Positions 10,454 to 64,000 are shown, counted from the first letter of the stretch. The stretch: 64,000 nucleotides of DNA from Bacillota bacterium (GCA_049718765.1 JBNARI010000001.1:109697-173696); one strand, 5' to 3'. Numbers and translations are program-made. The notes: generated from the letters alone by a model not told the origin.

Positions 10454-10456
10454 CGG

Positions 10457-11943: not shown

Positions 11944-12018
11944 ATTATGTTTGATCCAGGGGCTGTTATTTAGTGCTGTATAATATTGCCGTGACTTGAC
12001 AGACTGGGATCGCAGGCC

Positions 12019-15000: not shown

Positions 15001-15050
15001 TTGATCCGCGGGTAGTCAGCTTGTTCTTGAAGGAGCTTGACCAGTTGTGA
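12019..15050 (+). pseudogene. disrupted multi-domain c-di-GMP phosphodiesterase gene (GAF-GAF / PAS-GAF / GAF-HD-GYP), broken by an in-frame TAG and a -1 frameshift
   Basis: Three ORF fragments (12019/12034..13143; 13162..14277; 14094..15050). The first two share a frame and are separated only by a TAG at 13141–13143 that falls inside a PAS N-terminus (…SELRYRKLVE*SSSSILVLDMTGRVLDANP). Around 14091–14096 the GAF continuity (…VTSYLGLER | VLLLNPHTQ…) requires a +1 G inserted in a short GG run. The C-terminal fragment carries HD-GYP motifs (HDIGK, HHERWDGTGYP). The intact paralogue lies immediately downstream. Confidence 0.55.
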
Positions 15051-44970: not shown

Positions 44971-44980
44971 GGTGTAGCCA

Positions 44981-46794: not shown

Positions 46795-47510
46795 CGGAGG
46801 GGTGGGCCGTGGTTAAGGGCGAAAAGCTGTACGAGGGCAAGGCCAAGGTGGTTTACTCCACCGACGATCCAGGCAAGCTGTGGATGCATTTCAAGGATGA
46901 GGCTACTGCTTTTGATGGCAAGAAGAAAGGCATAATCCAAAACAAGGGGTACCTGAACGCTCAAATTTCCGCGAAGCTCTTCGGCGTGCTGTCCAGAAGC
47001 GGGATCCCAACCCATTTCCTGCACCTGGAGGGGCCACAGGACATGATCGTCAAGAAAGTGGAGATCGTTCCTGTGGAAGTAGTGGTGCGCAACGTTGTGG
47101 CAGGCAGCATGGCCAAACGCCTGGGCATGGAAGAAGGGTACAAGCTTCCCAAACCAGTACTGGAGTTCTACTACAAAAGCGACCCACTGGGGGACCCCTG
47201 GGTGAACGAGTACCACATAGAGGCGTTTGGCTGGGCAACGGCTGACGAGATCGAGACGATCAAGCACACTGCGCTTGCGGTGAACCAGGTGCTTGCAGAG
47301 CACTTCCGCAGGGTGGGGATAATGCTGGTTGATTTCAAGCTCGAGTTCGGTAGGGCAGATGGGCAAGTTATCGTGGCAGACGAGATATCCCCTGACACCT
47401 GCCGCCTGTGGGATGCCCGGTCAGGAGAGAAGCTGGACAAGGATAGGTTTAGGCGGGACATGGGCGGAGTGGAGGACGCTTACGAGGAAGTGCTGCGGCG
47501 GCTGAGCTAG
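46791..47510 (+). CDS. purC: SAICAR synthetase
   Basis: VVKGEKLYEGKAKVVYSTDDP… GTG start overlapping the purB stop (GTGA). The track ORF begins further upstream at 46752. Confidence 0.9.
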   Translation: MTEGWAVVKGEKLYEGKAKVVYSTDDPGKLWMHFKDEATAFDGKKKGIIQNKGYLNAQISAKLFGVLSRSGIPTHFLHLEGPQDMIVKKVEIVPVEVVVRNVVAGSMAKRLGMEEGYKLPKPVLEFYYKSDPLGDPWVNEYHIEAFGWATADEIETIKHTALAVNQVLAEHFRRVGIMLVDFKLEFGRADGQVIVADEISPDTCRLWDARSGEKLDKDRFRRDMGGVEDAYEEVLRRLS

Positions 47511-47537
47511 GCTTGCTGGAATCGTGGGGGTGGTAGC

Positions 47538-47792
47538 TTGGAGTTTGAAGCCCGCATTGAAATCATGCTGAAGGACACCGTCTCGGACCCCCAGGGCCAG
47601 GCGGTGTGTTCCGCATTGAGGAACATGGGGTTTTCTGGTACCCGAGAAGTGAGGGTGGGCAAGCTCATACGGCTGAGGCTCGAAGCTGAAAACGAAGGGA
47701 TTGCCCACGCCATTGTGGACGAGATGTGCCGGAAACTGCTGGCAAACCCCGTGATCGAAAATTACGGGTTCGAGCTGGGGGTGTGCAAGTGA
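47538..47792 (+). CDS. purS: FGAM synthase PurS subunit
   Basis: 84 aa; [20 protein letters not shown]…VIENYGFEL. Confidence 0.9.
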
Positions 47793-48466
47793 AATTCGGC
47801 GTAGTAGTTTTCCCCGGATCGAACTGCGACTCCGACTGTTATCACGCGCTCAAAGACGTGTTGGGGGTTGACGTTGATTACATTTGGCACAAGTCTGGTG
47901 ACGTTTCTGGGTACGACTGCATTGTGCTACCTGGTGGCTTTTCCTATGGCGACTACTTGCGCGCTGGGGCCATCGCCAGGTTTTCACCTGTAATGCGGGC
48001 GGTGGAGAAGTATGCAAGAGCTGGTGGGCTTGTGCTGGGAATCTGTAACGGCTTCCAAATACTGCTCGAGGCTGGCCTTTTGCCCGGGGCAATGCGACGC
48101 AATGACTGTCTGCAGTTCAGGTGCGAGTACGTGGAGATCGTTGTGGAGAACTGCCATACTCCCTTCACCCGTGAGTGTAAAGCTGGACAAGTGCTTCGGA
48201 TGCCCATTGCCCACGGCGAGGGCAACTACTATGTGGAGCCGGAAACCCTCAGGAAGTTGGAGCGTAATGGCCAAATAGTGCTCAGGTACGGGCAAAACCC
48301 AAACGGCTCTGTGAGCAGCGTTGCTGCCGTAGCAAACCAAGAGGGCAACGTGCTCGGAATGATGCCCCATCCCGAGCGATGCTGCGAGAACGTGCTTGGG
48401 GGAACTGATGGGCGGCTGATCTTCGAGTCGGTGATCGGCTACCTGGGCTCGGTGAGGTGGTCCTGA
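47789..48466 (+). CDS. purQ: FGAM synthase glutamine amidotransferase subunit
   Basis: [20 protein letters not shown]…[10 protein letters not shown]…MPHPER. GTG overlaps the purS stop (GTGA). Confidence 0.9.
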
Positions 48467-48467
48467 C

Positions 48468-50693: not shown

Positions 50694-52087
50694 GGGAAGA
50701 GTGCGGCGTGTTTGGGGTGTTCGGCTGCGAGGACGCTGCGGTCGTGACCAAGCACGCACTCTTGGCTTTGCAGCACAGGGGTCAGGAGAGCGCCGGCATA
50801 GCTTCATCTGACGGCCATCGCCTTCGCGCACACAAGGGTATGGGGCTTGTGAGCGAGGTGTTCGGCGGTGGGAAGGAGCTACAACTGCCCGGCACGAGCG
50901 CCATTGGACACGTGCGCTATTCCACCACAGGGGCCAGCAGCATTTCCAATGCCCAACCTCTGTTGGTAAGGTACTGCGGCGGTGAGCTCGCTGTTGCTCA
51001 CAACGGCAACCTTGTGAACGCTGCTGCCATTAGGAGGGAGTTGGAAGCCCAGGGCTCCATATTCCAGACCACTATGGATACAGAGGTAATCGCCCACTTG
51101 GTGGCAAGGGAAGGCAACGTGGATTTCCTGGAGGCTCTGGGCGTTTGCTTGCGGAAGCTGAGGGGGGCATACGCCCTGGTTTTCCTCCAACCATCCAGGA
51201 TGTTTGCGGTGCGCGACCCCACGGGCATCAGACCTTTGTCCGTTGGGCGCCTTGGAGCTGGTTGGGTGGTCGCGTCGGAAAGCTGTGCTTTCGACGCCAT
51301 AGGGGCAGAATTCGTGAGGGACGTGGCGCCTGGGGAAGCCCTTGTATTCGAAGAAGGCCACATGCGCGCTGTGCAGCTTTTGCCTGGAAGTCCCGGGAGG
51401 CTTTGCTCCTTTGAATACATTTACTTTGCCAGACCCGACTCTGACCTTGAGGGGATCAACGTCCATTCGGCCAGGAAAAGGATGGGCCGGGCATTGGCGA
51501 GGAACTGCCCTGTGGAGGCGGACTTGGTGGTGGGAGTTCCCGATTCCAGCATATCCGCTGCGTCGGGGTTCGCAGAAGAAGCTGGGATCCCCTACGAGAT
51601 GGGTCTAGTCAAAAACAGGTACATTGGGAGGACTTTCATTCAGCCTGACCAGCGCCTTCGTGAAGCAAGCGTGAGATTGAAGCTCAACCCCCTTCGCCGG
51701 GTGATAGAAGGAAAGAGGGTTGTGCTTGTGGACGACTCTATCGTGAGGGGAACCACCATGAAACGCATAGTGGGCCTCCTAAGGGAAGCGGGGGCGCGGG
51801 AAGTGCACGTGCGTGTGAGTTCGCCGCCATACAGGTTCCCCTGCTTCTATGGGATTGACACTTCGGCGGAAGGGGAGCTTGTGGCAGCCCGGATGTGCGT
51901 GGAGGAAATAAGGCGCTTGGTGGACGCGGATTCGTTATACTACCTTTCGGAAGAAGCCCTTGCCAGCGCAATAGGTAGGCCGGCGGAACGCCTGTGTACC
52001 GCGTGTTTTAACGGTTCGTATCCTGTGCCAATTGAAGGCGCTGAGGGGAAGTTTGCCCTAGAGGGCCATGAGGATAGGCGGTGGTGA
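50678..52087 (+). CDS. purF: amidophosphoribosyltransferase
   Basis: N-terminal nucleophile CGVFGVFG after the initiator region, a PRTase domain and C-terminal Fe-S Cys ligands (CTACFNGSYP). GGCAGGAGG ribosome-binding site. Confidence 0.95.
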   Translation: MPYGLREECGVFGVFGCEDAAVVTKHALLALQHRGQESAGIASSDGHRLRAHKGMGLVSEVFGGGKELQLPGTSAIGHVRYSTTGASSISNAQPLLVRYCGGELAVAHNGNLVNAAAIRRELEAQGSIFQTTMDTEVIAHLVAREGNVDFLEALGVCLRKLRGAYALVFLQPSRMFAVRDPTGIRPLSVGRLGAGWVVASESCAFDAIGAEFVRDVAPGEALVFEEGHMRAVQLLPGSPGRLCSFEYIYFARPDSDLEGINVHSARKRMGRALARNCPVEADLVVGVPDSSISAASGFAEEAGIPYEMGLVKNRYIGRTFIQPDQRLREASVRLKLNPLRRVIEGKRVVLVDDSIVRGTTMKRIVGLLREAGAREVHVRVSSPPYRFPCFYGIDTSAEGELVAARMCVEEIRRLVDADSLYYLSEEALASAIGRPAERLCTACFNGSYPVPIEGAEGKFALEGHEDRRW

Positions 52088-52089
52088 CC

Positions 52090-53175
52090 ATGGAAGGCAA
52101 AGCCAAGGGCTCCCATGCCTTAGGAAGTTCCCAAGCGTATGCTCGGGCGGGCGTTGACATAGACGCTGCTGGTAGACTTGCACCAATACTGGAATCCATT
52201 GCGCGGGGCACTTACACAAGTGGAGTGCTGTCTGGCGTAGGGGGATTTGCAGGCTTGTTTGAACTGGACAGCAGCGCTGCAACTCGCCCTGTGCTGGCGG
52301 CCAGTTGCGATGGGGTTGGAACCAAGCTCAAGGTAGCCCAAATGCTAGGCGTGAACCACACAGTTGGCATTGACTGTGTGGCCATGAACGTGGACGACGT
52401 GGTGTGTACAGGGGCCAAGCCCCTTTTCTTCTTGGACTACATTGCGGTGGGTCGTCACAATCCAGAGCTCATCCAGGATGTGGTTGCTGGAGTGGCCGAA
52501 GGCTGCCGCCTGGCGGGATGTGCTCTCCTGGGCGGAGAGACGGCTCAAATGCCTGGTTTTTACGACGAAGGTGAATATGAGCTCGCCGGGTTTGCGGTGG
52601 GAGTGGTCGACAGGGAAAAGCTTATCGACGGTAGCGCTGTTTCCCCCGGGGATGCCCTGGTGGGTTTGCACTCCTCAGGACTTCATTCCAACGGTTACAG
52701 CCTGGTGAGGAAAGTTTTGCTGGAAGATGCCAAGATGCGTCTCGAGGACCATGTGCCAGAGCTGGGCAGGACCCTGGGCGAGGAGCTGCTCGAACCCACT
52801 CGCATTTACGCGCCGGCAGTAGTGCAAAGCTTGTGCCAGTTCCAAGTGCATGGAGTGGCACACATCACTGGTGGAGGTCTATACGAGAACTTGCCTCGGG
52901 TATTGCCAATGGGATGCCGGGCGCTTGTACGCCGGGGCAGTTGGCCAGAGCCAGCAGTATTCCACCTGATCAAGGAAAAGGGTGGTTTGCCCTGGAGGGA
53001 GATGTTCCGCACATTCAACATGGGCATAGGAATGGTGCTCATTGTGGGAGAGGATCAGGCAGAGGAGTGTGCAAGGTGGTTTAGGACCCAAGGCATTGGG
53101 GCAAGCCTCGTGGGCGAGGTAGTTGCCTCGACGCCTGGCGAAGTGCCCAGCGTGGAAGTGGAGGGGTTGAATTGA
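52090..53175 (+). CDS. purM: AIR synthetase
   Basis: YARAGVDIDAAGRLA…AASCDGVGTKLKVAQ… Start at ATG 52090 (track GTG 52081). Confidence 0.9.
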   Translation: MEGKAKGSHALGSSQAYARAGVDIDAAGRLAPILESIARGTYTSGVLSGVGGFAGLFELDSSAATRPVLAASCDGVGTKLKVAQMLGVNHTVGIDCVAMNVDDVVCTGAKPLFFLDYIAVGRHNPELIQDVVAGVAEGCRLAGCALLGGETAQMPGFYDEGEYELAGFAVGVVDREKLIDGSAVSPGDALVGLHSSGLHSNGYSLVRKVLLEDAKMRLEDHVPELGRTLGEELLEPTRIYAPAVVQSLCQFQVHGVAHITGGGLYENLPRVLPMGCRALVRRGSWPEPAVFHLIKEKGGLPWREMFRTFNMGIGMVLIVGEDQAEECARWFRTQGIGASLVGEVVASTPGEVPSVEVEGLN

Positions 53176-53798
53176 AGGAGCCTCTGCGAATTGGCGTGCT
53201 GGCCTCCGGGAGGGGAAGCAACCTTCAGGCGTTGATGGACGCCTGCAGGAGCGGATTCATACCTGGGGAAATAGTGGTGGTGATAAGTGACAGGCCAAGC
53301 GCGCTAGCGTTGGAACGCGCGCGTTGTGCCGGGATAGAAGCAGTTGGGATTGATCCCTCCAAAGTGGGCGGGATGGCCGGGTTTGAGAGAGAAGCGGCCA
53401 GGATCCTCAAGGATAGGCAGGCTGGCCTGGTATGCCTGGCGGGATTCATGCGGGTGCTCAGTCCGGCTTTCTTGAAGGAATTCCCCAACCGCGTATTGAA
53501 TATACATCCTTCGTTGCTTCCTTCGTTCCCAGGATTGGAAGCACAGCGCCAGGCACTGGAATACGGGGTGAAAATCACCGGGTGCACAGTGCATTTTGTG
53601 GACGAACAGGTGGACCACGGGCCAATTGTGATCCAAGCCGCAGTGCCTGTGCTGGAGGACGACACTGTGGAATCCCTGTCCGAGAGGATCCTGAGGGAAG
53701 AACACAGGATTTACCCAGAGGCTGTGCGGCTTTTTGCCACTGGCCGCCTTAACATTGTTGGCAGGCGCGTTCGCGTCTTGCCAGAAGGCGACGAGTAA
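53172..53798 (+). CDS. purN: GAR formyltransferase
   Basis: LRIGVLASGRGSNLQAL…NIHPSLLPSFPG…TGCTVHFVDEQVDHGPII. TTG start overlaps the purM stop. Confidence 0.9.
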   Translation: MKEPLRIGVLASGRGSNLQALMDACRSGFIPGEIVVVISDRPSALALERARCAGIEAVGIDPSKVGGMAGFEREAARILKDRQAGLVCLAGFMRVLSPAFLKEFPNRVLNIHPSLLPSFPGLEAQRQALEYGVKITGCTVHFVDEQVDHGPIVIQAAVPVLEDDTVESLSERILREEHRIYPEAVRLFATGRLNIVGRRVRVLPEGDE

Positions 53799-53810
53799 GG
53801 GGGTATCCGC

Positions 53811-55349
53811 TTGGGGAACATCGCAGTGATAAGCGTCTATGACAAGCAAGGAGTTGTGGAATTTGCAACGGGCCTCACCCAACTGGGTTATGAGATCGTG
53901 TCCACTGGGGGCACTGCAAAGGCACTGAGGGAGGGCGGAGTGCAAGTAACAGAAGTCTCCGACCTAACCGGTTTCCCCGAAATACTGGACGGGAGGGTCA
54001 AGACCCTTAATCCTGTGATCTTTGCTGGCATCTTGGCCCGGCGTGCAGTTGGCCAACACATGGCTGAGCTTGAGAAACGGGGGATTAAGCCCGTTGACGT
54101 TGTAGCCGTGAACTTGTACCCCTTTGAGGACACGGTGAAGAAGCCAGGGGTGACCATGGATGAGGCGGTGGAGAACATCGACATAGGGGGACCGTCCCTG
54201 CTTAGGGCTGCGGCCAAGAACCACGAGGACGTGGCAGTGGTGTGCGATCCATCTGACTATTCCTGGGTGCTTGAAGCCCTGCAAAACGGTACCTTGAACG
54301 GGGACCGCAGGCGGCAGCTTGCGGCCAAGGCGTTCTACCTCACGGCTTGTTACGACTCGCTGATTGCTTCGTTCATGGCCAAGAAGGCAGGGGTCGACCT
54401 GCAGCAGTTCCCCGAAAGGCTGACGCTTCACTTCCAAAAGAAGATGGACCTCAGGTACGGTGAGAACCCCCATCAGAGGGCGGCCTTCTACGTTGAACCC
54501 TTCTCCCAAGAGGTGACTATTGCAGGGGCTCGCCAATTGCAGGGGAAGGAGCTGTCCTTCAACAACATCCTCGATGCCGATGCGGCGCTAAACATTGTCA
54601 AGGAGTTCGACCAGCCCGCGGCAGTTGTGGTGAAGCACACCAACCCTTGCGGCTGCGCGGTGGGTGAGACCCTTTCCGAGGCGTTCCGGAAGGCATACGA
54701 AAGTGATCCTGTGTCCATTTTCGGAGGCATAGTGGCCTTCAACAGGAAACTGGACCCTGAGACAGCCAGGCGTCTGGCTGATATATTCCTTGAAATCGTA
54801 ATTGCACCTGAGTTCGACGACGAGGCCCTTGAAGTCTTGAGCAAAAAGACCAACCTGCGGGTGCTTGCAACCGGACACTGGCTTGGGCACCCGTCCCAGG
54901 GCAGGGACTTGCGCAAAGTGCGCGGCGGCCTGCTCCTGCAGGACGCCGACACTCAGGATGCGGAGCATTGGCGAGTGGTGACAGACAAGGAACCCACGCC
55001 TGAGCAACTGGCAGACTTGCGATTTGCGTGGAAAGTGGTGAAGCACGTCAAGTCTAACGCAGTGGTGCTTGCCAAAGGCAGGCAAACCATGGGCATTGGC
55101 GCTGGACAAATGAACAGGATAGACGCTGCCAAGATTGCCATTGCCCACGCTGGGGAGGCTGCTGTTGGATGCGTGCTTGCGTCTGACGGTTTCTTCCCCT
55201 TCCCAGATGTGGTTGAGGCTGCCACCAACGCTGGCATAGTTGCAATTGTGCAGCCTGGTGGCTCCATTAGGGACAACGAGTCCATTGCGATGGCAAACCA
55301 AAAGGGGATTGCAATGCTGTTTACGGGAGTGCGCCACTTCAAGCATTGA
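53811..55349 (+). CDS. purH: bifunctional AICAR transformylase / IMP cyclohydrolase
   Basis: NIAVISVYDKQGVVEFA…GGTAKAL…; MGS-like plus AICARFT domains. TTG start after TAAGGGGGT. Confidence 0.95.
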   Translation: MGNIAVISVYDKQGVVEFATGLTQLGYEIVSTGGTAKALREGGVQVTEVSDLTGFPEILDGRVKTLNPVIFAGILARRAVGQHMAELEKRGIKPVDVVAVNLYPFEDTVKKPGVTMDEAVENIDIGGPSLLRAAAKNHEDVAVVCDPSDYSWVLEALQNGTLNGDRRRQLAAKAFYLTACYDSLIASFMAKKAGVDLQQFPERLTLHFQKKMDLRYGENPHQRAAFYVEPFSQEVTIAGARQLQGKELSFNNILDADAALNIVKEFDQPAAVVVKHTNPCGCAVGETLSEAFRKAYESDPVSIFGGIVAFNRKLDPETARRLADIFLEIVIAPEFDDEALEVLSKKTNLRVLATGHWLGHPSQGRDLRKVRGGLLLQDADTQDAEHWRVVTDKEPTPEQLADLRFAWKVVKHVKSNAVVLAKGRQTMGIGAGQMNRIDAAKIAIAHAGEAAVGCVLASDGFFPFPDVVEAATNAGIVAIVQPGGSIRDNESIAMANQKGIAMLFTGVRHFKH

Positions 55350-55363
55350 GGGGGAGCAACGGG

Positions 55364-56626
55364 GTGAAGGTACTGATAGTAGGCTCGGGAGGAAGGGAGC
55401 ACGCCATTGCGTGGGCAGTCTCCAGGAGCAGTAGGGTGGAGCAGATATATGCGGCACCGGGGAATGCTGGGATTGCGGAGATTGCGGAATGTGTGCCTAT
55501 CCAGGCAAACCAAGTGAGAGCCTTGGCCGAATTCGCCCATGACAAAGGCATAGACTTGACTGTGGTTGGACCGGAGCTGCCACTAGCAATGGGTATTGTA
55601 GATGGATTTGCTGCTCGAGGGCTGAAGTGTTTTGGCCCGACGGCGGCAGCTGCAAGGATTGAGAGCAGTAAGATATGGGCAAAACAGTTCATGAAGAGGC
55701 ACGGAATACCCACCGCAGCGTTTCAGTGGTTTGATTCGATTGAACCAGCTCTCAGTTACGTTCGTGCACAGAAGGGTGGCGTAGTAATTAAAGCGGATGG
55801 GCTGGCTGCGGGTAAGGGGGCTGTTGTGGTTGGGGACTCCGGGGAAGCAGAACAGGTACTCAAGGCATTCATGGAGAAGCGAGCCCTAGGGGATGCGGGT
55901 GCCAGGGTAGTAATCGAGGAACGGCTGCAAGGCCCAGAGGTTTCGGTTATGGCGCTTTGCGACGGCGAGCGCGTTGTACCCCTCGCACCAGCGCAGGACT
56001 ACAAACGGGCCTACGATTGCGACCAGGGACCCAACACGGGTGGCATGGGTGCCTACTCTCCTGTGCCCTTGCTGGATACAGTTACAATGGAGCGGATATA
56101 CTCGCAGATATTAGTTCCCACAGTAAGGGGTCTTAAGTCTGAGGGCATTGAGTACGTTGGGGTACTCTACGCAGGACTGATGCTTACAGACGAAGGGCCC
56201 AAGGTACTCGAATTCAACTGCCGCTTCGGTGACCCCGAGACCCAAGTGGTACTTCCTAGACTTGAAAGCGATTTAGTTTCATTGCTGGAAGCTTGTGTCG
56301 ACCGCAGGTTGGGGAGTGTACCCGTTAAATGGAGTCCCAGCGCTTGTGTGTGCGTGGTCGTAGCGTCACAGGGGTACCCAGGGGAGTACAGTAAGGGTAT
56401 GCCCATCACAGGTATGGAAGAGGCAAAGAAGACTGAGGGCGTGATGCTGTTCCACGCGGGCACTGCCGTGGAAAACGGTAGAGTGGTGACTGCGGGCGGG
56501 CGAGTGATGGGAGTGACTGCTGTGGACACTGACATCGGCAGGGCAAGGGCAAAAGCGTACGAGGCGGTCAGCAAGATCAAGTTCGGGGGGATGTTTTACA
56601 GGCGTGACATTGCAGCGAAGCACTGA
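55364..56626 (+). CDS. purD: GAR synthetase
   Basis: VKVLIVGSGGREHAIAWA…, an ATP-grasp fold. GTG at 55364 lies 6 nt after GAGGGGGAG; the track ORF starts at an upstream TTG at 55346. Confidence 0.9.
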   Translation: MKVLIVGSGGREHAIAWAVSRSSRVEQIYAAPGNAGIAEIAECVPIQANQVRALAEFAHDKGIDLTVVGPELPLAMGIVDGFAARGLKCFGPTAAAARIESSKIWAKQFMKRHGIPTAAFQWFDSIEPALSYVRAQKGGVVIKADGLAAGKGAVVVGDSGEAEQVLKAFMEKRALGDAGARVVIEERLQGPEVSVMALCDGERVVPLAPAQDYKRAYDCDQGPNTGGMGAYSPVPLLDTVTMERIYSQILVPTVRGLKSEGIEYVGVLYAGLMLTDEGPKVLEFNCRFGDPETQVVLPRLESDLVSLLEACVDRRLGSVPVKWSPSACVCVVVASQGYPGEYSKGMPITGMEEAKKTEGVMLFHAGTAVENGRVVTAGGRVMGVTAVDTDIGRARAKAYEAVSKIKFGGMFYRRDIAAKH

Positions 56627-57110
56627 ACTGAAGGGTGTCCGGTATCTTGCGAAGGTGGCGGTAATCGCTTCGTTGTATGCGTTGTTTACCGTGTTGCCCC
56701 CCTTCAACAGCCTGAGTTATGGTCCTGTGCAAGTAAGGATATCTGAAGCGCTCACAGTTTTGCCATACCTTACAGGTGCTGCTGTGCCTGGGTTAGTGCT
56801 GGGTTGCCTCCTGGGTAATCTTGGAAGCCCATTCCTGGTGTGGGATCTCACGGTAGGTGTTGGTGCTACCGCGCTTGCGGCCTTTCTCACTCGTCGTGTG
56901 TCCAAAGTGTGGCTGGCGCCCCTTCCGCCGGTAGTAGTCAATAGTTTGTTGGTCTCGACGTATGTGAGCACCCTTACCCAAACCCCTTACATCCTCACTG
57001 CGTGCTATATTGGACTGGGAGAGGTAGTGTCCTGCTACTTAGTTGGCCTGCCGCTGCTCATTTCGATACGCAGAAATAGGAGGCTGGTGGACCTGCTGCG
57101 GGAAGGTTAA
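56604..57110 (+). CDS. QueT-like small membrane protein (putative queuosine-precursor / ECF S-component-type transporter)
   Basis: 168 aa, 5–6 transmembrane segments. N-terminal VAVIASLYALFTVLPPFNSLSYGPVQVRISEALTVLPYL resembles the QueT-family (PF06177) N-terminus. GTG start overlaps the purD end by about 23 nt. No upstream riboswitch is possible. Confidence 0.5.
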   Translation: MTLQRSTELKGVRYLAKVAVIASLYALFTVLPPFNSLSYGPVQVRISEALTVLPYLTGAAVPGLVLGCLLGNLGSPFLVWDLTVGVGATALAAFLTRRVSKVWLAPLPPVVVNSLLVSTYVSTLTQTPYILTACYIGLGEVVSCYLVGLPLLISIRRNRRLVDLLREG

Positions 57111-57174
57111 TGGGCTCACGTCACAGATTGTGCTGGAACTCACCATAAAAGGAGCGGATAATTAGGAATAAGGG

Positions 57175-58656
57175 ATGGCCAGAGGACTTGGCTCTGTGCC
57201 AAGGGGGGTGGAGTGGGTGAGCCTTCCCCAGACAGACTACAGACTCCTCTTTGAATCCATGTTGACCCATTTGAAGCAAGGAGTGCTCGTGGTAGATGAC
57301 GGGGCAAATGTAGTGTTTTATAACGAGCCCGTTACAGAGATTGCAGGGATCGAACCAGAAAAGGCAATAGGCAAGAACATTCTTGAAGTGTTTCCTGATT
57401 TGACTCCAGAGACGAGCACGTTCTACTACGTGCTGAGAACAGGCAGGCCACTCATCGACCACGTTCAAACATATGTGAATTCCCGCGGTAAACAGGTGAC
57501 CATAGTCAGTTCCACCATGCCGTTGACAAAGAACGGCAAGGTTGTTGGCGCTTTCGAGCTTTACAGGGATTTCTCCAGCGCGCGGGAACTTTCCGACAAG
57601 ATCCTTTCACTGCAAAGGGAGCTGTACAAGAAGACTCCATGGGAAAAAGCTTGGCGGGACAACCGGGCGGTGTATACCTTCGAGGACATAGTGTACCAGA
57701 GCAGCGTAATGATCGATCTGATTAACAAGGCAAGGAAAGTTGCAGACAGTCCATCGCCGCTATTGGTGTGGGGTGAGACTGGTACAGGTAAGGAGCTGCT
57801 GGTCCAGGCCATACACAATGCAAGCAGAAGACGGGACAAGCCTTTCATTGCGCAAAACTGCGCAGCTCTGCCCAAGACGCTACTAGAAGGAATTCTTTTC
57901 GGTACCACTGCTGGCAGCTTCACTGGTGCCAAGGACAGACCAGGTCTTTTCGAGCTGGCTGATGGGGGGACGCTTTTTCTGGACGAAATCAATGCGATGG
58001 ATGTGGAACTCCAGGCGAAGCTGCTGCGCGCAGTTCAAGATGGGGTGATACGCAGGATAGGAGGCCTTAGATGCAGAGTGGTTGATGTAAGGGTTATAGC
58101 CTCTGCCAATGAGGATCCGGTAAAGGCGATGAAGAACAGGTCCCTGAGAGAGGATCTTTATTACAGGCTCAGCGTGATCGGTTTAGCGGTACCGCCTCTC
58201 AGGGACAGGAAAGAGGACATACCTCTACTAGTTGAGCATTTTATAGGGATGTACAACAAGCAACTGGGCAAGAAGGTGAGGGGCGTTTCTCGTGACGCAA
58301 TGCAAGTGCTGATTAACTACTACTGGCCGGGAAATGTGCGGCAACTGAAGTCCACCGTAGAAAGCATCATGACTTTCATCGAAGCCGACGTTGAAACTGT
58401 AGAGGCGAAGCACCTTCCTGCAAGTATCCTTTGTTGCTCCTCTCAGGAAGAGGAGTACCGCAATTTTAGCCCTGAATTCTCGTCTAACGCTCCTTCTTTG
58501 GCCGAGGCAGTGGACACGTTTGAGAGGAATATGATTATGAATGCTCTGCTCAAGGCTAAGGGCAATTGTGCTGAAGCAGCCCGGATTTTGAGGGTCCCAC
58601 GGCAGACGCTTCATAACAAAATGAAAAAGCACGCCATAACCAAACCACAACTCTGA
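57175..58656 (+). CDS. sigma-54-dependent transcriptional activator with N-terminal PAS sensor and C-terminal Fis-type HTH
   Basis: PAS domain (residues about 20–130). AAA+ sigma-54 interaction domain: Walker A GETGTGKE, GAFTGA-type loop GSFTGA, Walker B LFLDE, and R-finger region. C-terminal AARILRVPRQTLHNKMKKH. Confidence 0.85.
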   Translation: MARGLGSVPRGVEWVSLPQTDYRLLFESMLTHLKQGVLVVDDGANVVFYNEPVTEIAGIEPEKAIGKNILEVFPDLTPETSTFYYVLRTGRPLIDHVQTYVNSRGKQVTIVSSTMPLTKNGKVVGAFELYRDFSSARELSDKILSLQRELYKKTPWEKAWRDNRAVYTFEDIVYQSSVMIDLINKARKVADSPSPLLVWGETGTGKELLVQAIHNASRRRDKPFIAQNCAALPKTLLEGILFGTTAGSFTGAKDRPGLFELADGGTLFLDEINAMDVELQAKLLRAVQDGVIRRIGGLRCRVVDVRVIASANEDPVKAMKNRSLREDLYYRLSVIGLAVPPLRDRKEDIPLLVEHFIGMYNKQLGKKVRGVSRDAMQVLINYYWPGNVRQLKSTVESIMTFIEADVETVEAKHLPASILCCSSQEEEYRNFSPEFSSNAPSLAEAVDTFERNMIMNALLKAKGNCAEAARILRVPRQTLHNKMKKHAITKPQL

Positions 58657-58783
58657 GCCGGGCTTTCTCTGTCCCAAAAACGGGCTAACGATGTCCGAAT
58701 AATGGGACAGGCGCTGCCGTTCAGCGGGCCTCCATTCATCGTAAGACCAGCTAAGCATAGGGTTTTGCACTGGGGAGGCAAAA

Positions 58784-58799
58784 CGGCACGGGTATTGCT
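58784..58799 (+). promoter_or_regulatory. candidate sigma-54 (-24/-12) promoter for the SSS-transporter operon
   Basis: CGGCACGggtaTTGCT matches TGGCACG-N4-TTGCW with correct GG/GC spacing, about 130 nt upstream of the TTG start at 58932. It is immediately preceded by the palindrome GTTTTGCactggggagGCAAAAC (58762–58784). Confidence 0.45.
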
Positions 58800-58931
58800 A
58801 GCGCTTAAAAAGCAGGTACAAACGACTGTTGGCAGGGGGGTGGGAACGTCGTTGACCCAATTGTGATCTTTGCTCGGGTATGTGGGCTTCAAGGAGTTGC
58901 GAACAAGTTATCCACTTAGGGGGGAAGGGGT

Positions 58932-60323
58932 TTGCTGCATTTTGTAGCATTGATTGGTTACCTGGTGGGTATGTCCCTCGTCGCGTCTTATTACTCAAAG
59001 TTCATCAAGACTGAAGAGGACTTTTTACTGGCAGGTCGCCGCCTGGGTGCTGTGGTTCTAGCAGGTACAATGATGGCTACTTGGATGGGTTCGGGAACTG
59101 TGGTCGGTGGTACCAACTCGCTGGGCTATCAATACGGGCCGTGGGTGGCAGTGATCTTCGGAATTGCATCACCCATAGGTATTCTGTTGCTGGTGTTCCT
59201 GTCTAAGAGGATCAAAGCCATGCAAGCCCGAAGCGTGCCGGATGTGTTCGAACTTGCGTATGGACCAGCTGCCCGGGCAATCGTTAGCGTCATAGTCATG
59301 ATTGCTTACCTTGCGATTACCTCTTACCAGTTCACTGGGACTGGATTTGTTCTCAACGCAATACTTGGAATACCTACCAGCGTGGCAACCCTGATCAGCG
59401 CTGTGGCGATAACTGCCATGACTGTTACTGGTGGTCTGGTGTCTGTAGCGTACACTGACTTCATCAGCGCCGTACTGATGTTGACTGGGCTGTTGTTGGG
59501 AGTACCGGCGGCGATCATCAGAGCGGGTGGGTGGTCGAGCATTGCTGCCAAGCTGCCTCCACAAAACCTCCGACTTGGCGGGATCACGTGGCTCAAGATC
59601 CTGGGCTACTTCTTGCCAACTTTCTTGCTGGTAATAGGGGATCAAAACATGTACCAAAGGTTGTTCGCCGCGAAGGATGCCACACATGCGAGGATGGGTT
59701 CCATTGGATGGTTCATCGGTGTTGCACTGGTAATGCCTCTGGTGGCGTTTGGAGCTACTGCCTCGCGAGCGTTGCACCCGAACATTCCTGCTGGTCAAGC
59801 TCTCATAACGTTGGCCGTCAAGGACATGCCTGCGGTGCTTGGAATGCTCTGTATTATTGCCATATCTGCCTTCATAGTGACCACTGGCGACTCGTTCCTT
59901 CTCACTTGCTCCACGAACCTAGGTTGGGACCTCTATTTTCGCTACATAAACCCGAAGGCTTCCGAGCGGCAGCGATTGGTCTTCTACAGGGCTGCAGTGA
60001 TTGTCCTGGCAGCGATTGCGTACGTGATCGTTCAGTTCTTCCCCACTGTGCTGGCAGTGCAAATGTATGCATACACGATGTACGGCGCCGCAGTAACGCC
60101 GCCCCTGTTGGCAGCAGTGATATGGCCTGGCACCACCAAGGCTGCTGGGATCTCTTCCATGCTTGTGGGAGCGGTGACTACCTTAACGTGGGAGATTATG
60201 AAGAAGCCCTTTGGCATTGACACGGTGCTCGTGGCAGCCCCCCTGTCCGTTGCGGTGCTAGTGATAGTGAATCTGTTGACGAGGGGAAAGAAGGTTCCTT
60301 CTCAGGTGAGCAAGGCGGTTTGA
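58932..60323 (+). CDS. sodium:solute symporter (SSS) family transporter, PutP/OpuE-like
   Basis: 463 aa, about 13 transmembrane segments. N-terminal SSS core (…LAGRRLGAVVLAGTMMATWMGSGTVVGG…). TTG start after GGGGGGAAGGGG. Confidence 0.85.
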   Translation: MLHFVALIGYLVGMSLVASYYSKFIKTEEDFLLAGRRLGAVVLAGTMMATWMGSGTVVGGTNSLGYQYGPWVAVIFGIASPIGILLLVFLSKRIKAMQARSVPDVFELAYGPAARAIVSVIVMIAYLAITSYQFTGTGFVLNAILGIPTSVATLISAVAITAMTVTGGLVSVAYTDFISAVLMLTGLLLGVPAAIIRAGGWSSIAAKLPPQNLRLGGITWLKILGYFLPTFLLVIGDQNMYQRLFAAKDATHARMGSIGWFIGVALVMPLVAFGATASRALHPNIPAGQALITLAVKDMPAVLGMLCIIAISAFIVTTGDSFLLTCSTNLGWDLYFRYINPKASERQRLVFYRAAVIVLAAIAYVIVQFFPTVLAVQMYAYTMYGAAVTPPLLAAVIWPGTTKAAGISSMLVGAVTTLTWEIMKKPFGIDTVLVAAPLSVAVLVIVNLLTRGKKVPSQVSKAV

Positions 60324-60353
60324 TGGGACGAAACGACGTCAATTGGGAGAACC

Positions 60354-61511
60354 GTGGAAGAGGAGGTATGGGCTGTGGGTGTAAAGGAACGTGTTGACCG
60401 CCTCAGAACATTCATGCAGGAGAAGGGCATAGACGCTTGCGTAGTTGTTGATCCGCTCAACCAGTATTACCTAACAGGGTTCTACGCCATTACTTACAGC
60501 AGGCCCATAATCACTGTGATCTTGCCAGACAAGGTAGAGCTCATAGTGCCTGCTCTCGAAGAGCTGCATGCTGCGGAAAGTGCAAAGGTGGACTGCCTAC
60601 GGGTATACTACGAGCACCCTGAGAAAGCCAGTAGCGCAAAGAGCGCCTGGGAACTCCTGCACGACGTGGTTAAGGCTCATAATGTCCATTGCGTCGGCGT
60701 GGAAATGGACGTGATCCCCGCCGCTCTGGCCAACCGAATAGCTTCTGCGGTACCCAAGGCGCTGGAGGACTGTGGCCCAGTGATAGCCAAAATGCGATTG
60801 GTAAAGGACAGCCAGGAACTGGAGCTGATTAGGAATGCTGCCGTGCTGGCCGACACTGGTGTGTTAACCACCATCAAGAACAGCCTTCCTGGGGTCACTG
60901 AACTAGAAATCGACGCGGTTGGAAACGCAGAAATATTGAAAGCCGCCGCCCAGAGATTCCCGGGCTGCAGAGTTGACTTATTTGCCATGTCGCCTTCAGG
61001 AGCGGAGCGAACCGTGCTTCCACACGTTTTTTCCATTCCGCGGCGTCTCGTAAAAGGAGACGTGGTCATCCATAGTCGTCAGGTGGCGCTTGACGGTTAC
61101 CGCGCCGAGTCAGAACGGACATATTTCGTGGGCGAAGCTTCCAGTGAATACGAGCGGCTATTCAAGGTAATGTTGGAGGCACAGACCGCAGGAATCAACG
61201 CAATTAGGGCAGGTGTAACATGTAGAGAAGTAGATCAGGCTGCGCGGCGGGTGATACAGGAAGCGGGCTTTGGTGAGCACTTCATACACCGAACAGGTCA
61301 CGGTCTCGGGTTAGGCTTGCACGAACCTCCATACCTCCGCTTTGACAACGACGAGGTGCTGGTAGAGGGAATGGTGGTGAGCGTCGAACCCGCCTTCTTT
61401 GTGCCCGGGAAGGGTGGCTTCAGACACTCTGACACGGTTATCGTAACGGCAACCGGTGCGGAAGTGGTCACGAAAGCCCCAAGGAAGTTCGAAGAGTTAG
61501 TGGTCGGATAA
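60354..61511 (+). CDS. M24B Xaa-Pro dipeptidase / aminopeptidase (prolidase-like)
   Basis: Creatinase-N-like N-domain plus M24 catalytic motifs (…HRTGHGLGLGLHEPPY…, VVSVEPAFFVPGKGGFRHSD). Confidence 0.8.
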   Translation: MEEEVWAVGVKERVDRLRTFMQEKGIDACVVVDPLNQYYLTGFYAITYSRPIITVILPDKVELIVPALEELHAAESAKVDCLRVYYEHPEKASSAKSAWELLHDVVKAHNVHCVGVEMDVIPAALANRIASAVPKALEDCGPVIAKMRLVKDSQELELIRNAAVLADTGVLTTIKNSLPGVTELEIDAVGNAEILKAAAQRFPGCRVDLFAMSPSGAERTVLPHVFSIPRRLVKGDVVIHSRQVALDGYRAESERTYFVGEASSEYERLFKVMLEAQTAGINAIRAGVTCREVDQAARRVIQEAGFGEHFIHRTGHGLGLGLHEPPYLRFDNDEVLVEGMVVSVEPAFFVPGKGGFRHSDTVIVTATGAEVVTKAPRKFEELVVG

Positions 61512-61524
61512 CTGGTTGGAGCCT

Positions 61525-61566
61525 TTTTGACGGTTATGCAGCCAGGAGAATCTGCAAACCTGGCTG
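61525..61566 (+). other. 13-bp perfect inverted repeat (hairpin) between the peptidase and the glycyl-radical-enzyme gene, overlapping a sigma-54-like TGGC…TGCT motif
   Basis: TTATGCAGCCAGG-agaatctgcaaa-CCTGGCTGCATAA. Downstream, TGGCTGCataaCTGCT has GG/GC at the sigma-54 spacing. No U-tract follows, so terminator and operator roles are both possible. Confidence 0.35.
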
Positions 61567-61763
61567 CATAACTGCTTAATGGTTCTTAACGTAGCGTGAC
61601 AGCGGGTGGGATGGAGTAAACGCTGCCTGGTTTCTATGCGTTTGCCGGGCATACAGCTACACCGACGATTGGGTGGGGCTTTTCCCGGGAAACGTTTTGG
61701 GTTAGGGCGGCTACTGCTCCGAGGATGCCAAATTCCAGGAGGCGAGCAACTGTGTCAGGGTGC

Positions 61764-64000
61764 ATGCTGCCGGCTCAAGGAATCGAGCGCGAGCTGCAGA
61801 GAAGGAGGGGCGCCATCAAGCCCATTAATGCCAGGATTGCCAGACTCAGACAGGAAAGCGTGCAGGCAGAAGTAAGGGTCAGTGGGGAAAGGGCCAAACT
61901 GGTGACTGAATTCTACACACAGGGGAGTTCTCCGGGTATTTCCGTCCCCGTTCAGCGAGCAATGGCCTTCAAATACCTCATGGAGCGTGTGAGCATACCT
62001 GTAGAGGAGGGCCAGCTCATCGTAGGGCTCAGGGGCACCGGCCCTCAGCAGGTGCCCACATACCCCGAGATCTGCGTGCACAGTCTGGAAGATCTTGAGG
62101 TGTTGCACTCGCGGGAGAACATGCCTTATAAGGTGGACGAAGAAACAAGACAGCTGTACCAAACCGAGGTCATTCCGTTTTGGAAGGGCAAGGCGATGAG
62201 GGACCTGATGTTCCAGAGCTTGCCTCAGCAGTGGCTGGCGGCATACCAAGCAGGTGTGTGGACCGAGTTCATGGAACAGAGAGCTCCAGGCCATACTGCT
62301 GGGGGTATCAGGATATTCCAAAAGGGACTCTTGGACATCAAGGATGAAATCAGACAGGTCATGCATTCCCTGGAGCCGCATGACCCGCAGTACTACGACA
62401 AGATCGAAGAGCTTAAGGCGATGGACGTTGTGGCCGACGCGCTTCTCATTTACGCCAACAGGTACGCCCTTAAACTGGAGGAAATGGCAAGCACGGAGTC
62501 GGACCCAGGCCGGAAAGAGGAGCTCACTCAAATGGCCGAGATTTGCAGGTGGGTTCCGGCCCGGGCGCCTCGCACGTTCTGGGAAGCGCTGCAGCATTAC
62601 TGGTTCGTGCATGTGGGCGTGGCATATGAGGCCAACCCCTGGGATTCGTTCAATCCGGGACGAATAGACCAGCACTTGTACCCCTTCTACAAGAGGGATG
62701 TGGACGAGGGCAGGTTGACCAGAGAACGTGCTAAGGAGCTCCTGCAAGCTTTTTGGATCAAGTTCAACAATCAGCCTGCTGTGCCGAAAGTTGGCGTCAC
62801 CGTGGAAGAGAGCTTCACGTATAACGACTTTGCCAAGCTTAATGTGGGAGGGCTCAAAGAGGACGGTTCGGACGGAGTCAATGAGCTGTCCTACCTGATT
62901 CTGGAAGTGCTGGACGAAATGCGAACCCTCCAACCTAACACTGCAGCGCTCCTGAGCAACAAAAACCCGGATCGTTTCCTCATGAAAGCGCTGCAAGTGG
63001 TGGGACCTGGGTTTGGAGAACCACCCATGTTTAACTTCGACGGCGTTGTGGTGAAGATGTTGAGACAAGGAAAGACCCTTGAGGATGCGAGGGCTTCTGG
63101 GGTAAGCGGATGCGTTGAGACTGGCGCGTTCGGTAAGGAATGTTACATTCTCACAGGATACCTCAATCTCCCCAAGATACTCGAGATCACTCTGAACAAC
63201 GGCACTGACCCTCTTACTGGAAAGAGGATCGGGATTGAGACTGGGGATCCCAGGACCTTCTGCAACTTCGAGGATTTGTGGGAGGCTTTCGAAAAACAGC
63301 TTGCCTATTTCATCGAAATTAAGATGAAGGGCAATGACATCATTGAGGCTCTCTATGCCAAACAGTTGCCAGTACCGTTCCTCTCTCTGTGGATTGAAGA
63401 CTGTGTGCGCAAGGGGAAGGACTACAACGCTGGAGGAGCACGTTACAACACCCAGTACATTCAAGCCGTTGGGCTTGGCACCCTCGCGTACAGCCTTGCA
63501 GCCATCCGCTACCACGTATTTGAGAGACAGGCCGTATCCATGGAGAGGCTGCTGCAGGCCATGGCTAACAATTTTGAAGGGCAGCACGAACTGCTCAGGC
63601 AGGTTATACTGAGCAGGACTCCAAGATATGGAGAGGACGACGACTTCGCAGACTCGATTGCGGTTAGGATCGTTGACAGCCTCGTGCGGATTGTGGAAAG
63701 TTTTCCGCCGTCGCCGATCCGGAGAGCCTCCCGAAGAGTTTACTTCCTGCCGACCACCGCGCACGTGTATTTTGGAAAGATGACCGGTGCTACTCCAGAT
63801 GGGAGGAAGGCAGGTTTCCCGGTATCGGAGGGGGTATCCCCAGTTCAAGGCAGCGACAGGAAGGGGATCGCCCCGGTTTTTAGGTCCGTGGCAAAGTGCG
63901 ACTGGGATAAGACTGGTGGGGCCTTGCTCAACCAAAGATTGACCCCCGACTTGCTTGAAGGCGAGGAAAACATGAAGAAGTTAGGTCACCTGATTAGAGT
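61764..64000 (+). CDS. glycyl radical enzyme, PFL2 / glycerol-dehydratase (eliminase) family; 3' end beyond the window. HypD-like trans-4-hydroxy-L-proline dehydratase is a candidate identity
   Basis: Hand translation from ATG 61764 gives MLPAQGIERELQRRRGAIKPINARIARLRQESVQAEVRVSGERAKLVTEFYTQG…TYPEICVHSLEDLEVLH…EFMEQRAPGHT…WFVHVGV…FNNQPAVPKVG…SGCVETGAFGKECYILTGYLN…YNTQYIQAVGLGT…TPRYGEDDDFAD…LPTTAHVYFG…KTGGALLNQRL. GRE-eliminase hallmarks include the single catalytic Cys in the GCVE motif. The Gly-radical motif lies off the window. Alternative in-frame starts at 61725 and 61752. The 726-aa minus-strand track ORF (61755..63935) is its antisense shadow. Confidence 0.85.
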   Translation, partial: MLPAQGIERELQRRRGAIKPINARIARLRQESVQAEVRVSGERAKLVTEFYTQGSSPGISVPVQRAMAFKYLMERVSIPVEEGQLIVGLRGTGPQQVPTYPEICVHSLEDLEVLHSRENMPYKVDEETRQLYQTEVIPFWKGKAMRDLMFQSLPQQWLAAYQAGVWTEFMEQRAPGHTAGGIRIFQKGLLDIKDEIRQVMHSLEPHDPQYYDKIEELKAMDVVADALLIYANRYALKLEEMASTESDPGRKEELTQMAEICRWVPARAPRTFWEALQHYWFVHVGVAYEANPWDSFNPGRIDQHLYPFYKRDVDEGRLTRERAKELLQAFWIKFNNQPAVPKVGVTVEESFTYNDFAKLNVGGLKEDGSDGVNELSYLILEVLDEMRTLQPNTAALLSNKNPDRFLMKALQVVGPGFGEPPMFNFDGVVVKMLRQGKTLEDARASGVSGCVETGAFGKECYILTGYLNLPKILEITLNNGTDPLTGKRIGIETGDPRTFCNFEDLWEAFEKQLAYFIEIKMKGNDIIEALYAKQLPVPFLSLWIEDCVRKGKDYNAGGARYNTQYIQAVGLGTLAYSLAAIRYHVFERQAVSMERLLQAMANNFEGQHELLRQVILSRTPRYGEDDDFADSIAVRIVDSLVRIVESFPPSPIRRASRRVYFLPTTAHVYFGKMTGATPDGRKAGFPVSEGVSPVQGSDRKGIAPVFRSVAKCDWDKTGGALLNQRLTPDLLEGEENMKKLGHLIR

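Follow-up and report, generated by a model that had tools for sequence, protein, structure and literature searches.

A predicted sigma-54-dependent hydroxyproline locus carrying a non-canonical M24 protein in an uncultured Bacillota bacterium

Results

Genes and regulatory elements of the locus

The window, which is the whole 64,000-nucleotide stretch of DNA that was analysed, ends with four genes on one strand and three shorter sequence elements between them (Table 1). All five features claimed in the preliminary description were found where it had placed them. The activator start at 57175 is provisional, with 57259 considered as an alternative; the proteins read from these two starts had no exact sequence on record. 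The SSS protein (463 aa, TTG start) is identical to GenBank MGB9866445.1 and the M24 protein to MGB9866446.1, whose start at 60375 was adopted rather than 60354. The hypD gene starts at 61764, or at a GTG at 61752, and runs off the window; its full-length source protein is MGB9866447.1 (P0001).

Table 1. Positions of genes and predicted elements in the window
Feature	Position	Strand	Basis
Sigma-54 enhancer-binding activator	57175..58656	+	PAS sensor, AAA+ with GSFTGA loop, HTH_8
Candidate upstream activator site	58670..58709	+	40-nt block alike in L010
Sigma-54 type -24/-12 promoter (predicted), CGGCACGGGTATTGCT	58784..58799	+	Sequence match
Sodium:solute symporter (SSS) family transporter; first gene of SSS-M24 cassette	58932..60323	+	Pfam SSF, 118 bits
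Non-canonical M24 (pita-bread fold) hydrolase (predicted), x-E-H-E-S clade	60375..61511	+	Pfam Creatinase_N + Peptidase_M24
Strong hairpin	61531..61574	+	Inverted repeat 61533-61546 / 61559-61572
hypD, trans-4-hydroxy-L-proline dehydratase, first 745 of 809 codons	61764..64000	+	NCBIfam NF043068, residues, motif

The glycyl radical enzyme is a predicted HypD

P0001 scored 1122.1 bits against the HypD equivalog model NF043068, passing its cut-off of 1100; the window-truncated product (749 aa) scored 1011 bits on the same model. The next family scored 628 bits. Among structures, the glycyl radical enzyme (GRE) matched C. difficile HypD (6vxc) best with 848 bits, followed by CutC with 407; HplG gave 327. 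All 13 HypD active-site residues (F152, R156, H160, W277, D278, K326, S334, D339, F340, C434, E436, Y450 and T645), whose substrate, acid-base and catalytic roles were taken from PMC7077986, are kept in P0001; the 11 of them other than C434 and E436 are also identical in 119 of 119 nearest homologs. The Cys loop GCVE (Cys434/Glu436) at 63108-63119 confirmed the earlier report of a GCVE-bearing GRE running off the window, and the C-terminal RVxG[YF] motif expected of such an enzyme is present as RVAGY at residues 781-785 of P0001, outside the window. Active-site comparison, family score and C-terminal motif agree, and the GRE is predicted to be trans-4-hydroxy-L-proline dehydratase HypD, not a new eliminase.

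A GRE-activating radical-SAM enzyme had been predicted just downstream, and MGB9866448.1 is indeed the next accession after HypD on the contig. The accessions of the M24 protein (MGB9866446), HypD (447) and the activase (448) are consecutive on one 225,232-bp contig, from which the adjacency of hypD and activase genes was inferred. MGB9866448.1 was the fourth-best database match to the HypD activase of a neighbouring clade; its best family is NF043069 (HypD activase) at 355 bits, below the cut-off of 425, and it passed TIGR02494. The activase gene lies directly downstream of hypD in all close-clade loci.

The enzyme shares with the C. difficile HypD/HypD-AE system (6VXC; PMC7077986, PMC6219649) the PFL2-type GRE fold, GCVE, RVAGY, all Hyp residues and an adjacent dedicated activase. 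It is a member of a thermophile/archaeal clade that PMC6219649 had pointed out. The locus differs from that of C. difficile in its upstream genes, here those of the activator, the SSS transporter and the atypical M24 protein. proC is the usual Clostridial neighbour of hypD (PMC6219649); no P5C reductase gene was seen beside hypD in this window, nor in loci of the close clade.

A sigma-54 activator, a predicted promoter and a candidate site precede the SSS gene

The preliminary description of a PAS-containing sigma-54 activator was borne out by domains and motifs. Pfam identified PAS, Sigma54_activat (PF00158, 201.8 bits), AAA_lid_14 (PF25601) and HTH_8 (PF02954); Walker A is GETGTGKE at residue 200, and the GAFTGA-type loop is GSFTGA at residue 247. 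The predicted product has the full set of features that mark bacterial enhancer-binding proteins. Of the named families, PrdR scored best; in C. difficile it is the sigma-54 activator that responds to proline and controls the D-proline reductase operon (PMC6615313). PrdR membership was rejected, with 371.5 bits on NF041552 against an equivalog cut-off of 795 and a match covering profile positions 132-575 only. The two proteins have in common the AAA+/HTH_8 architecture, a TGT-N10-12-ACA type of site (here a candidate) and a function in imino-acid catabolism (here a putative one), whereas the activator here lacks the first ~130 profile positions and the target genes are not alike. Activator genes adjoin hypD in 7 of 82 hypD loci, and none was present in the 51 M24-clade loci of the context survey (L083-L133), so the activator travels with hypD and not with the SSS-M24 cassette.

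The -24/-12 element reported upstream of the SSS gene is present, with one mismatch to the consensus TGGCAC-N5-TTGCW and with the GG and GC doublets. A search of both strands of the 64 kb gave a single copy of its core, GGCACG-N4-TTGC, where 0.23 were expected. At least one core match appeared in 21 of 100 shuffles, so that the match, taken by itself, does not reach statistical significance. Its position carries weight: it lies in the 275-bp gap right after the activator gene, on the correct strand and 133 nt before the SSS start. It is the best plus-strand sigma-54 site in the gap between activator and SSS genes, and no sigma-70-like site was found in either intergenic gap.

Some 85 bp separate the candidate activator site from the -24 element downstream of it. 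This 40-nt block overlaps two tandem 22-nt repeats (58659-58702) and contains a TGT-N12-ACA palindrome, TGTCCGAATAATGGGACA, at 58692-58709; activators of the PrdR group are reported to have motifs of the TGT-N10-12-ACA type (PMC6615313). A similar block was found at positions 2533-2572 of L010, a Tepidanaerobacteraceae MAG contig (JANLFP010000010.1), by blastn (80% identity over 40 nt, E = 0.003) and by hand alignment (33/40 identical). There it stands before a sigma-54 promoter, TGGCATAGTATTTGCA, and a prolidase-OppABCDF-hypD-activase operon. TGTCC-N8-GGACA occurred four times in the 1.84 Mb of sequence compared, three of them in hypD loci. As L010 has no activator gene within 22 kb, orthology of the regulator stays hypothetical. 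The predicted promoter and candidate site resemble those before the operon of this related HypD clade member. Since the core is unique in 64 kb and the block is common to the L010 operon, the regulated-module logic of the preliminary description is supported.

A structured leader separates the M24 and hypD genes

The hairpin begins 20 nt past the M24 stop codon and consists of a perfect 14-nt inverted repeat, extending to 16 pairs, around a 12-nt loop. A T tract is lacking after the stem, and a terminator scan did not call it as an intrinsic terminator. The 256-nt hypD leader, to which the hairpin belongs, is highly structured (fold of 61505-61760, z = -4.5); it had no Rfam match, and no conservation of hairpin or leader was found in related loci. 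Neither a sigma-70-like nor a good sigma-54-like site was found in 61512-61763. Read-through into hypD was inferred because no other promoter-like site precedes the gene. Against an operon, a 16-pair hairpin between the M24 and hypD genes could terminate transcription.

The M24 protein lacks three of five canonical metal ligands

The protein had been described as an M24B Xaa-Pro dipeptidase. Membership in the M24 family held, with both Pfam domains passed, but the prolidase label was not supported. Its ligand positions read Ser234, Glu245, His309, Glu338 and Ser352 (S-E-H-E-S against the canonical D-D-H-E-E); aligned with the prolidases of P. furiosus and B. anthracis, the protein shows D209S, D220E and E327S. 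With three of the five canonical ligands replaced, the sequence therefore does not show an Xaa-Pro dipeptidase. These prolidases (1PV9 and 3Q6D) share with it Creatinase_N and pita-bread domains over ~375 aa; it differs in Asp to Ser and Glu to Ser changes at the second metal site and in a bridging Asp changed to Glu. The equivalents of His192, His284, His291, Glu313 and Arg325 are kept. The second metal site has lost both of its specific ligands, and the enzyme therefore probably works with one metal ion, bound by Glu245, His309 and Glu338.

The protein scored 194.6 bits against PepQ_Arch (cut-off 630), 144.9 against YpdF (393), 103 against DoeA_2 (575) and 75 against DoeA (613). Creatinase (1CHM), a metal-independent M24 homolog, matched at 98.7 bits, below the prolidases (174 bits), and membership in the creatinases or ectoine hydrolases was rejected, so the protein fits no characterised branch. 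The S/T-E-H-E-S signature is present in 120 of 120 nearest homologs, and of 150 representatives clustered at 50%, ~60 carry x-E-H-E-S; none of ten other clade representatives reached a named-family cut-off. In sequence comparison, the x-E-H-E-S proteins are a large uncharacterised clade separate from the prolidases.

The SSS-M24 pair is a cassette usually found without hypD

The transporter had been called an SSS (PutP-like) protein. SSS stands and PutP-like does not: it passes Pfam SSF only, falls below the cut-off for the sss superfamily model, and scores alike on PutP and PanF (~103 bits each). PutP was rejected at 103.3 bits on TIGR02121 (cut-off 515.5) and 74.8 on NF011948 (955), and PanF was below cut-off at 102.7 bits (328).

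The SSS-M24 pair recurs as a conserved unit in 15 loci or more, nearly all of them lacking hypD. In L083-L086, L091, L096-L098, L101, L102, L117, L122, L125 and L138, the gene just before the M24 ortholog encodes an SSS homolog (41-63% identity). Cassette-bearing loci, some of them from aerobic Bacilli or from archaea, show no hypD within the sequence examined there, and their regulators are diverse (LysR, GntR/FCD, IclR). The usual substrate therefore need not contain Hyp. Other M24-clade relatives adjoin peptide ABC transporters, AbgT, the 5-oxoprolinase genes pxpABC, an aminotransferase or a CN-hydrolase. None of 80 genome hypD loci (L003-L082) carried an x-E-H-E-S M24 gene; a second, independent adjacency of the two was found in L095.

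Canonical DDHEE prolidases flank hypD in L005, L010, L012, L023, L025, L028 and L035, and sigma-54-type promoters also precede hypD in L001/L002, L003, L010 and L012. In the closest HypD clade, hypD repeatedly has M24 peptidase and peptide transporter genes as neighbours, along with sigma-54 promoters or activators, in line with the sigma-54 context first described. L010 and L001 (activator-hypD-activase-activator-Opp-M24) share with our locus the HypD clade (74-85% identity), sigma-54 type promoters, the 33/40 block with TGT-N12-ACA and a scheme of import, hydrolase and HypD in turn. They differ in having canonical prolidases and an ABC peptide importer where our locus has SSS and an x-E-H-E-S M24 protein, and our locus also has the activator gene alongside. 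In gene order, the putative SSS-M24 pair fills the place of the canonical prolidase and Opp-type ABC importer of these relatives.

Discussion

Hydroxyproline (Hyp) is a collagen amino acid. We consider it reasonably probable that the region is a sigma-54-dependent Hyp-utilisation operon of an uncultured Bacillota bacterium, comprising activator, site and promoter, SSS, non-canonical M24, hypD and, just past the end of the window, the radical-SAM activase. The PAS domain would sense Hyp, Pro or a conjugate; the activator would bind the TGT-N12-ACA site and then open the sigma-54 promoter, and transcription would pass through the post-M24 hairpin into hypD. What SSS imports would be free Hyp or a small conjugate containing it; Hyp would be released by the M24 enzyme and dehydrated to P5C by HypD.

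Several other readings were weighed. That the GRE acts on a new substrate, as the preliminary description had allowed, would fit the many PFL2-type eliminases without assigned function and the action of HplG, a related GRE, on a Hyp isomer. We regard it as highly improbable in view of the equivalog score (1122 bits against 1100), the margin of HypD (848 bits) over HplG (327) and CutC (407), and the retention of 13/13 substrate and catalytic residues, including all that bind Hyp. The pair could also be what it was first called, an ordinary dinuclear Xaa-Pro/Xaa-Hyp dipeptidase with a PutP-type proline/dipeptide carrier. The best PDB and NCBIfam matches of the M24 protein are prolidases, and it retains the His192, His291 and Arg325 equivalents; yet Ser, Glu and Ser replace Asp209, Asp220 and Glu327 invariantly in 120/120 homologs, 194.6 bits is far from the 630-bit PepQ cut-off, and SSS scores PutP and PanF equally, both far under cut-off. 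This literal reading is improbable.

A more serious alternative, though still an unlikely one, is that the cassette is an unrelated neighbour serving another small solute, which landed between activator and hypD, with Hyp arriving by another route or SSS carrying free Hyp/Pro. It would explain a cassette conserved alone in at least 15 loci under diverse regulators without hypD, and clade members beside pxpABC, AbgT, aminotransferase and CN-hydrolase genes. SSS carriers are known to take up small solutes rather than dipeptides, and import of ordinary dipeptides by such a carrier would be without known precedent. Against it stand the sole promoter-like element for four genes, which lies upstream of SSS, the cassette's position in the slot of the L010 prolidase and Opp genes behind a near-identical upstream block, and the second hypD/M24-clade adjacency in L095. 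The hairpin raises a further doubt: were it to terminate, the activator would control SSS-M24 only, and hypD would have its own unrecognised promoter or RNA-level leader control. The perfect 14-nt repeat just past the M24 stop codon and the leader fold (z = -4.5) speak for such an arrangement; the stem without T tract, the silent terminator scan, the lack of promoter-like sites in 61512-61763 and a leader with neither Rfam match nor conservation elsewhere make it rather unlikely.

The core of the predicted operon is a known pathway (HypD) in a variant arrangement, and its sole unusual part is the "prolidase", which comes from an unstudied family branch and lacks three of five usual metal-binding residues. 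The M24 protein is a testable lead on a new activity. In canonical M24B enzymes the second metal site binds the N-terminal amine; in the x-E-H-E-S clade this site would have been lost. Tentatively, the M24 proteins of this clade, together with the SSS (or ABC/AbgT) importers that accompany them, may be a new class within the pita-bread fold. They would be mononuclear or metal-free hydrolases acting on small conjugates in which the alpha-amino group is not free as usual; examples would be pyroglutamyl- or prolyl-(hydroxy)proline. If so, the M24 enzyme would here draw on collagen fragments that resist prolidase, such as Pro-Hyp, to supply HypD with Hyp, and in other genomes enzymes of its clade would feed the 5-oxoprolinase PxpABC.

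Identity of the glycyl radical enzyme and its activase

ORF listing and translation placed four co-directional genes 3′ of a purine-biosynthesis block that is followed by a QueT transporter gene. The regulator, SSS transporter, M24 protein and glycyl radical enzyme (GRE) listed in the preliminary description were all recovered as ORFs with matching Pfam domains. In the GenBank annotation the SSS (MGB9866445.1), M24 (446) and HypD (447) genes and an activase gene (MGB9866448.1) are consecutive by accession number.

Genes of the hydroxyproline (Hyp) locus in the window
Feature	Position	Strand	Pfam domains
Regulator	57175-58656	+	PAS, Sigma54_activat, AAA_lid_14, HTH_8
SSS transporter	58932-60323	+	SSF
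M24 protein	60375-61511	+	Creatinase_N + Peptidase_M24
Glycyl radical enzyme	from 61764 (or GTG 61752) past window end	+	PFL-like + Gly_radical start

The purine block (43651-57107) forms the upstream boundary of the Hyp module, to which it is unrelated. It holds a xanthine/uracil-family permease followed by a complete operon (purE, purB, purC, purQ, purL, purF, purM, purN, purH, purD), and the QueT gene overlaps the end of purD. The window also encodes two proteins of unusual domain combination, a PocR-GAF-HD(HD_5) sensor (15047-17143) and a fusion of MoeA with a periplasmic-binding-protein-like domain (20449-22455).

The substrate of the GRE had been thought possibly new. Even truncated by the window, the enzyme scored 1011 bits on the NCBI HypD equivalog model, against 534 on the generic PFL2 model and 412 on CutC; its best match among solved structures was C. 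difficile HypD (6VXC) at 848 bits, ahead of a second one at 407. The full-length protein P0001 (MGB9866447.1, 809 aa, on a 225,232-bp contig) reached 1122.1 bits, past the equivalog cut-off of 1100, and carries the expected glycyl-radical motif, RVAGY, at its C-terminal end; GenBank names it 'trans-4-hydroxy-L-proline dehydratase [Bacillota bacterium]'. The Hyp-binding and acid-base residues of HypD are listed in the structure paper (PMC7077986), and all thirteen active-site residues are identical in P0001 and its 119 nearest homologs. By model score and active-site residues, the GRE is HypD and no new eliminase.

An activase had been predicted just downstream. When the activase from the nearest locus served as query, the fourth-best database match was MGB9866448.1, a protein of 300 aa named 'glycyl-radical enzyme activating protein [Bacillota bacterium]'. 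It is encoded on the same contig, bears the accession following that of HypD and has the HypD activase model as its best family. The activase gene lies 3′ of hypD in all close-clade loci (70-85% identity) and 5′ of it in the 55-60% clade. The central reading, that of a regulated module for Hyp use whose activase is encoded downstream, is supported; since the pathway is known and this HypD already correctly annotated, the locus itself is a variant.

Proposed sigma-54 control of the locus

The regulator has a Walker A motif (GETGTGKE), and its sigma-54-contacting loop reads GSFTGA. The promoter core GGCACG-N4-TTGC occurs once in the 64 kb (58785-58798) against 0.23 expected, which alone is not significant. 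It lies in the 275-bp gap that directly follows the activator gene, in the right orientation and 133 nt 5′ of the SSS start. A perfect sigma-54 consensus, TGGCACAAGCTTTGCA, which outscores this intergenic site at 58784, lies antisense within purM (52823-52838, - strand); it is probably a chance match, and the motif alone is therefore weak evidence.

Two tandem 22-nt repeats and a palindrome, TGTCCGAATAATGGGACA (TGT-N12-ACA), precede the promoter; sites of this kind are reported for activators of the group of PrdR, the proline-responsive sigma-54 activator (PMC6615313). A 40-nt block of this region (58670-58709) matched positions 2533-2572 of L010, a contig of a Tepidanaerobacteraceae MAG, at 33/40 positions by hand alignment (blastn E = 0.003). 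The HypD of this MAG is 74% identical, and the base composition of the MAG is very unlike that of the window's genome. There the block lies ∼120 nt 5′ of TGGCATAGTATTTGCA, and the operon behind it encodes a canonical prolidase, an SBP_bac_5/OppBCDF importer, HypD and the activase. Sigma-54-type promoters were also found 5′ of hypD in L001/L002, L003 and L012. Of the 82 hypD loci, 7 have an activator gene beside hypD, and none of the 51 loci with M24-clade homologs (L083-L133) has one, indicating that the activator belongs with hypD. We found no report of sigma-54 control of hypD in the literature. A sigma-54 circuit common to the thermophile HypD clade is one of two points worth follow-up.

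Two further sites were observed. A full-consensus promoter, TGGCACGGCCCTTGCT, lies 241 nt 5′ of hypD in L014 (9760-9775), a contig labelled as archaeal (Ca. Terraquivivens). To our knowledge archaea lack sigma-54, so this site is either a chance match or part of a mis-binned or transferred bacterial segment. In L020 (20790-20910), a composite site, TGTCC-N5-GAAAACGG-N6-TGTCCCGGTATCGGGACA, followed by GGGCATGGTTTTTGCG stands ahead of an acyl-CoA synthetase-like gene; hypD and the gene of a 698-aa activator lie 8.5 kb further 5′. Sites of the TGTCC-N8-GGACA type may thus be used by a broader family of activators and not in Hyp operons alone.

Between the M24 gene and hypD (61512-61763) we detected no sigma-70-like and no good sigma-54-like site; the best sigma-54-like candidate for a second promoter, TGGCTGCATAACTGCT, is weak, overlaps a hairpin and was rejected. 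This 16-pair hairpin has no T tract and sits inside a strongly structured leader (61505-61760, 256 nt; fold z = -4.5, with 0/200 shuffles equally stable). An Rfam scan of 56500-64000 matched no RNA family, and the leader has no counterpart in related loci; its role may be attenuation, processing or stabilisation. On the simplest reading of this gap, transcription from the 58784 promoter would read through the hairpin into hypD.

An M24 clade with altered metal ligands

The M24 protein had been described as an M24B prolidase. Alignment with P. furiosus and B. anthracis prolidases placed Ser, Glu, His, Glu and Ser at Asp209, Asp220, His284, Glu313 and Glu327, so that three canonical dinuclear-metal ligands are replaced, and the clade members tested reached no NCBIfam equivalog. 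Creatinase and ectoine-hydrolase identities were ruled out by scores. Loss of the ligands through decay is argued against by the nearest homologs, 120/120 of which read S/T-E-H-E-S, and by the 150 top-ranking representatives of a 50% clustering, ∼60 of which are x-E-H-E-S proteins versus 71 canonical DDHEE ones. Every hypD-flanking prolidase from another genome is of the DDHEE type, with just 27-32% identity to the M24 protein. No structure has been solved for the x-E-H-E-S clade, and we found neither a characterised member nor an M24 pyroglutamyl-proline peptidase in the literature. In M24 enzymes the first Asp is a ligand of the second metal alone, and the last Glu forms a bridge between the two. 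Since the Glu, His and Glu that remain could suffice for a single metal, and the equivalents of His192, His291 and Arg325 are kept, a mononuclear hydrolase is our preferred reading of the residues.

The 'PutP-like' label of the SSS transporter could not be upheld: it scored 103 bits for PutP and the same for PanF, far under either cut-off. SSS homologs (41-63% identity) lie directly 5′ of M24 orthologs (45-61%) in at least 15 loci, including the nearest relative L138 (archaeal), L083, L084 and L085 (Lysinibacillus), with regulators that differ among loci (LysR, GntR/FCD, IclR) and no hypD seen at any of them. Judged by gene order, these two genes travel as a mobile SSS-M24 cassette. Other importers also adjoin M24-clade genes, namely SBP_bac_5 ABC systems in 7 loci and AbgT carriers in 5 human-gut contigs. 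PanF and AbgT transport N-acyl amino acids, which lack a free amine. This cargo and the loss of the second metal site suggest, as a hypothesis only, that the clade acts on a conjugate whose N-terminus is blocked or an imino group, for example pGlu- or Pro-(hydroxy)proline. In six loci (L088, L092-L095, L120), pxpB-pxpC-pxpA (5-oxoprolinase) and a DUF3798 binding protein lie 3′ of the x-E-H-E-S gene, the pxp genes passing NCBIfam cut-offs (e.g., L088 598-5907); L107, L108 and L120 additionally carry a CN-hydrolase. These neighbourhoods suggest that 5-oxoproline can be a product or co-product of the clade.

One of these loci, L095, is a low-GC metagenome contig reading hypD C-terminus, GntR, M24 (SEHES), pxpB, pxpC (2-3481). 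Its hypD 3′ end has HypD as best family (195 bits). The contig is a second, independent hypD/M24-clade adjacency. No further one was found: P0190/P0031 are not adjacent on their single 436,865-bp contig, and P0200/P0077 are unrelated.

Other neighbourhoods of the clade were recorded. Human-gut loci L110-L115 share a cluster (∼8330-13830) of genes for an AbgT-family transporter, an x-E-H-E-S M24, a 244-aa protein matching no family, a PCC-domain protein and a class I/II aminotransferase. In L099 (1047-4644) and L100 (124-3373), a two-subunit aconitase X (AcnX large + swivel) lies directly 5′ of an x-E-H-E-S M24 and a Dpp-type ABC system. It may be a cis-3-hydroxyproline dehydratase or of the mevalonate-pathway type; the two-subunit form has been assigned to mevalonate-5-phosphate dehydratase (PMC8184944). 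As a second hydroxyproline link it was rejected, being of this type and scoring far under the LhpI cut-off.

Significance

HypD is a known and abundant anaerobic route for collagen-derived hydroxyproline; far less defined are the release of Hyp from peptides and the regulation of hypD. On regulation, this region and related loci suggest that a sigma-54/activator circuit, marked by an upstream site that can be recognised, recurs among thermophilic Firmicutes. The uncharacterised x-E-H-E-S clade with dedicated importers is the second point worth follow-up: a large, unnamed M24 group whose metal centre is remodelled and whose genes travel with those of its importers. Pro-Hyp, the main urinary Hyp peptide, is inefficiently cleaved by host peptidases (PMC6219649). 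If the clade cleaves such prolidase-resistant conjugates, this would close a gap in the pathway by which collagen is degraded anaerobically and correct a widespread mis-annotation as 'Xaa-Pro dipeptidase'.
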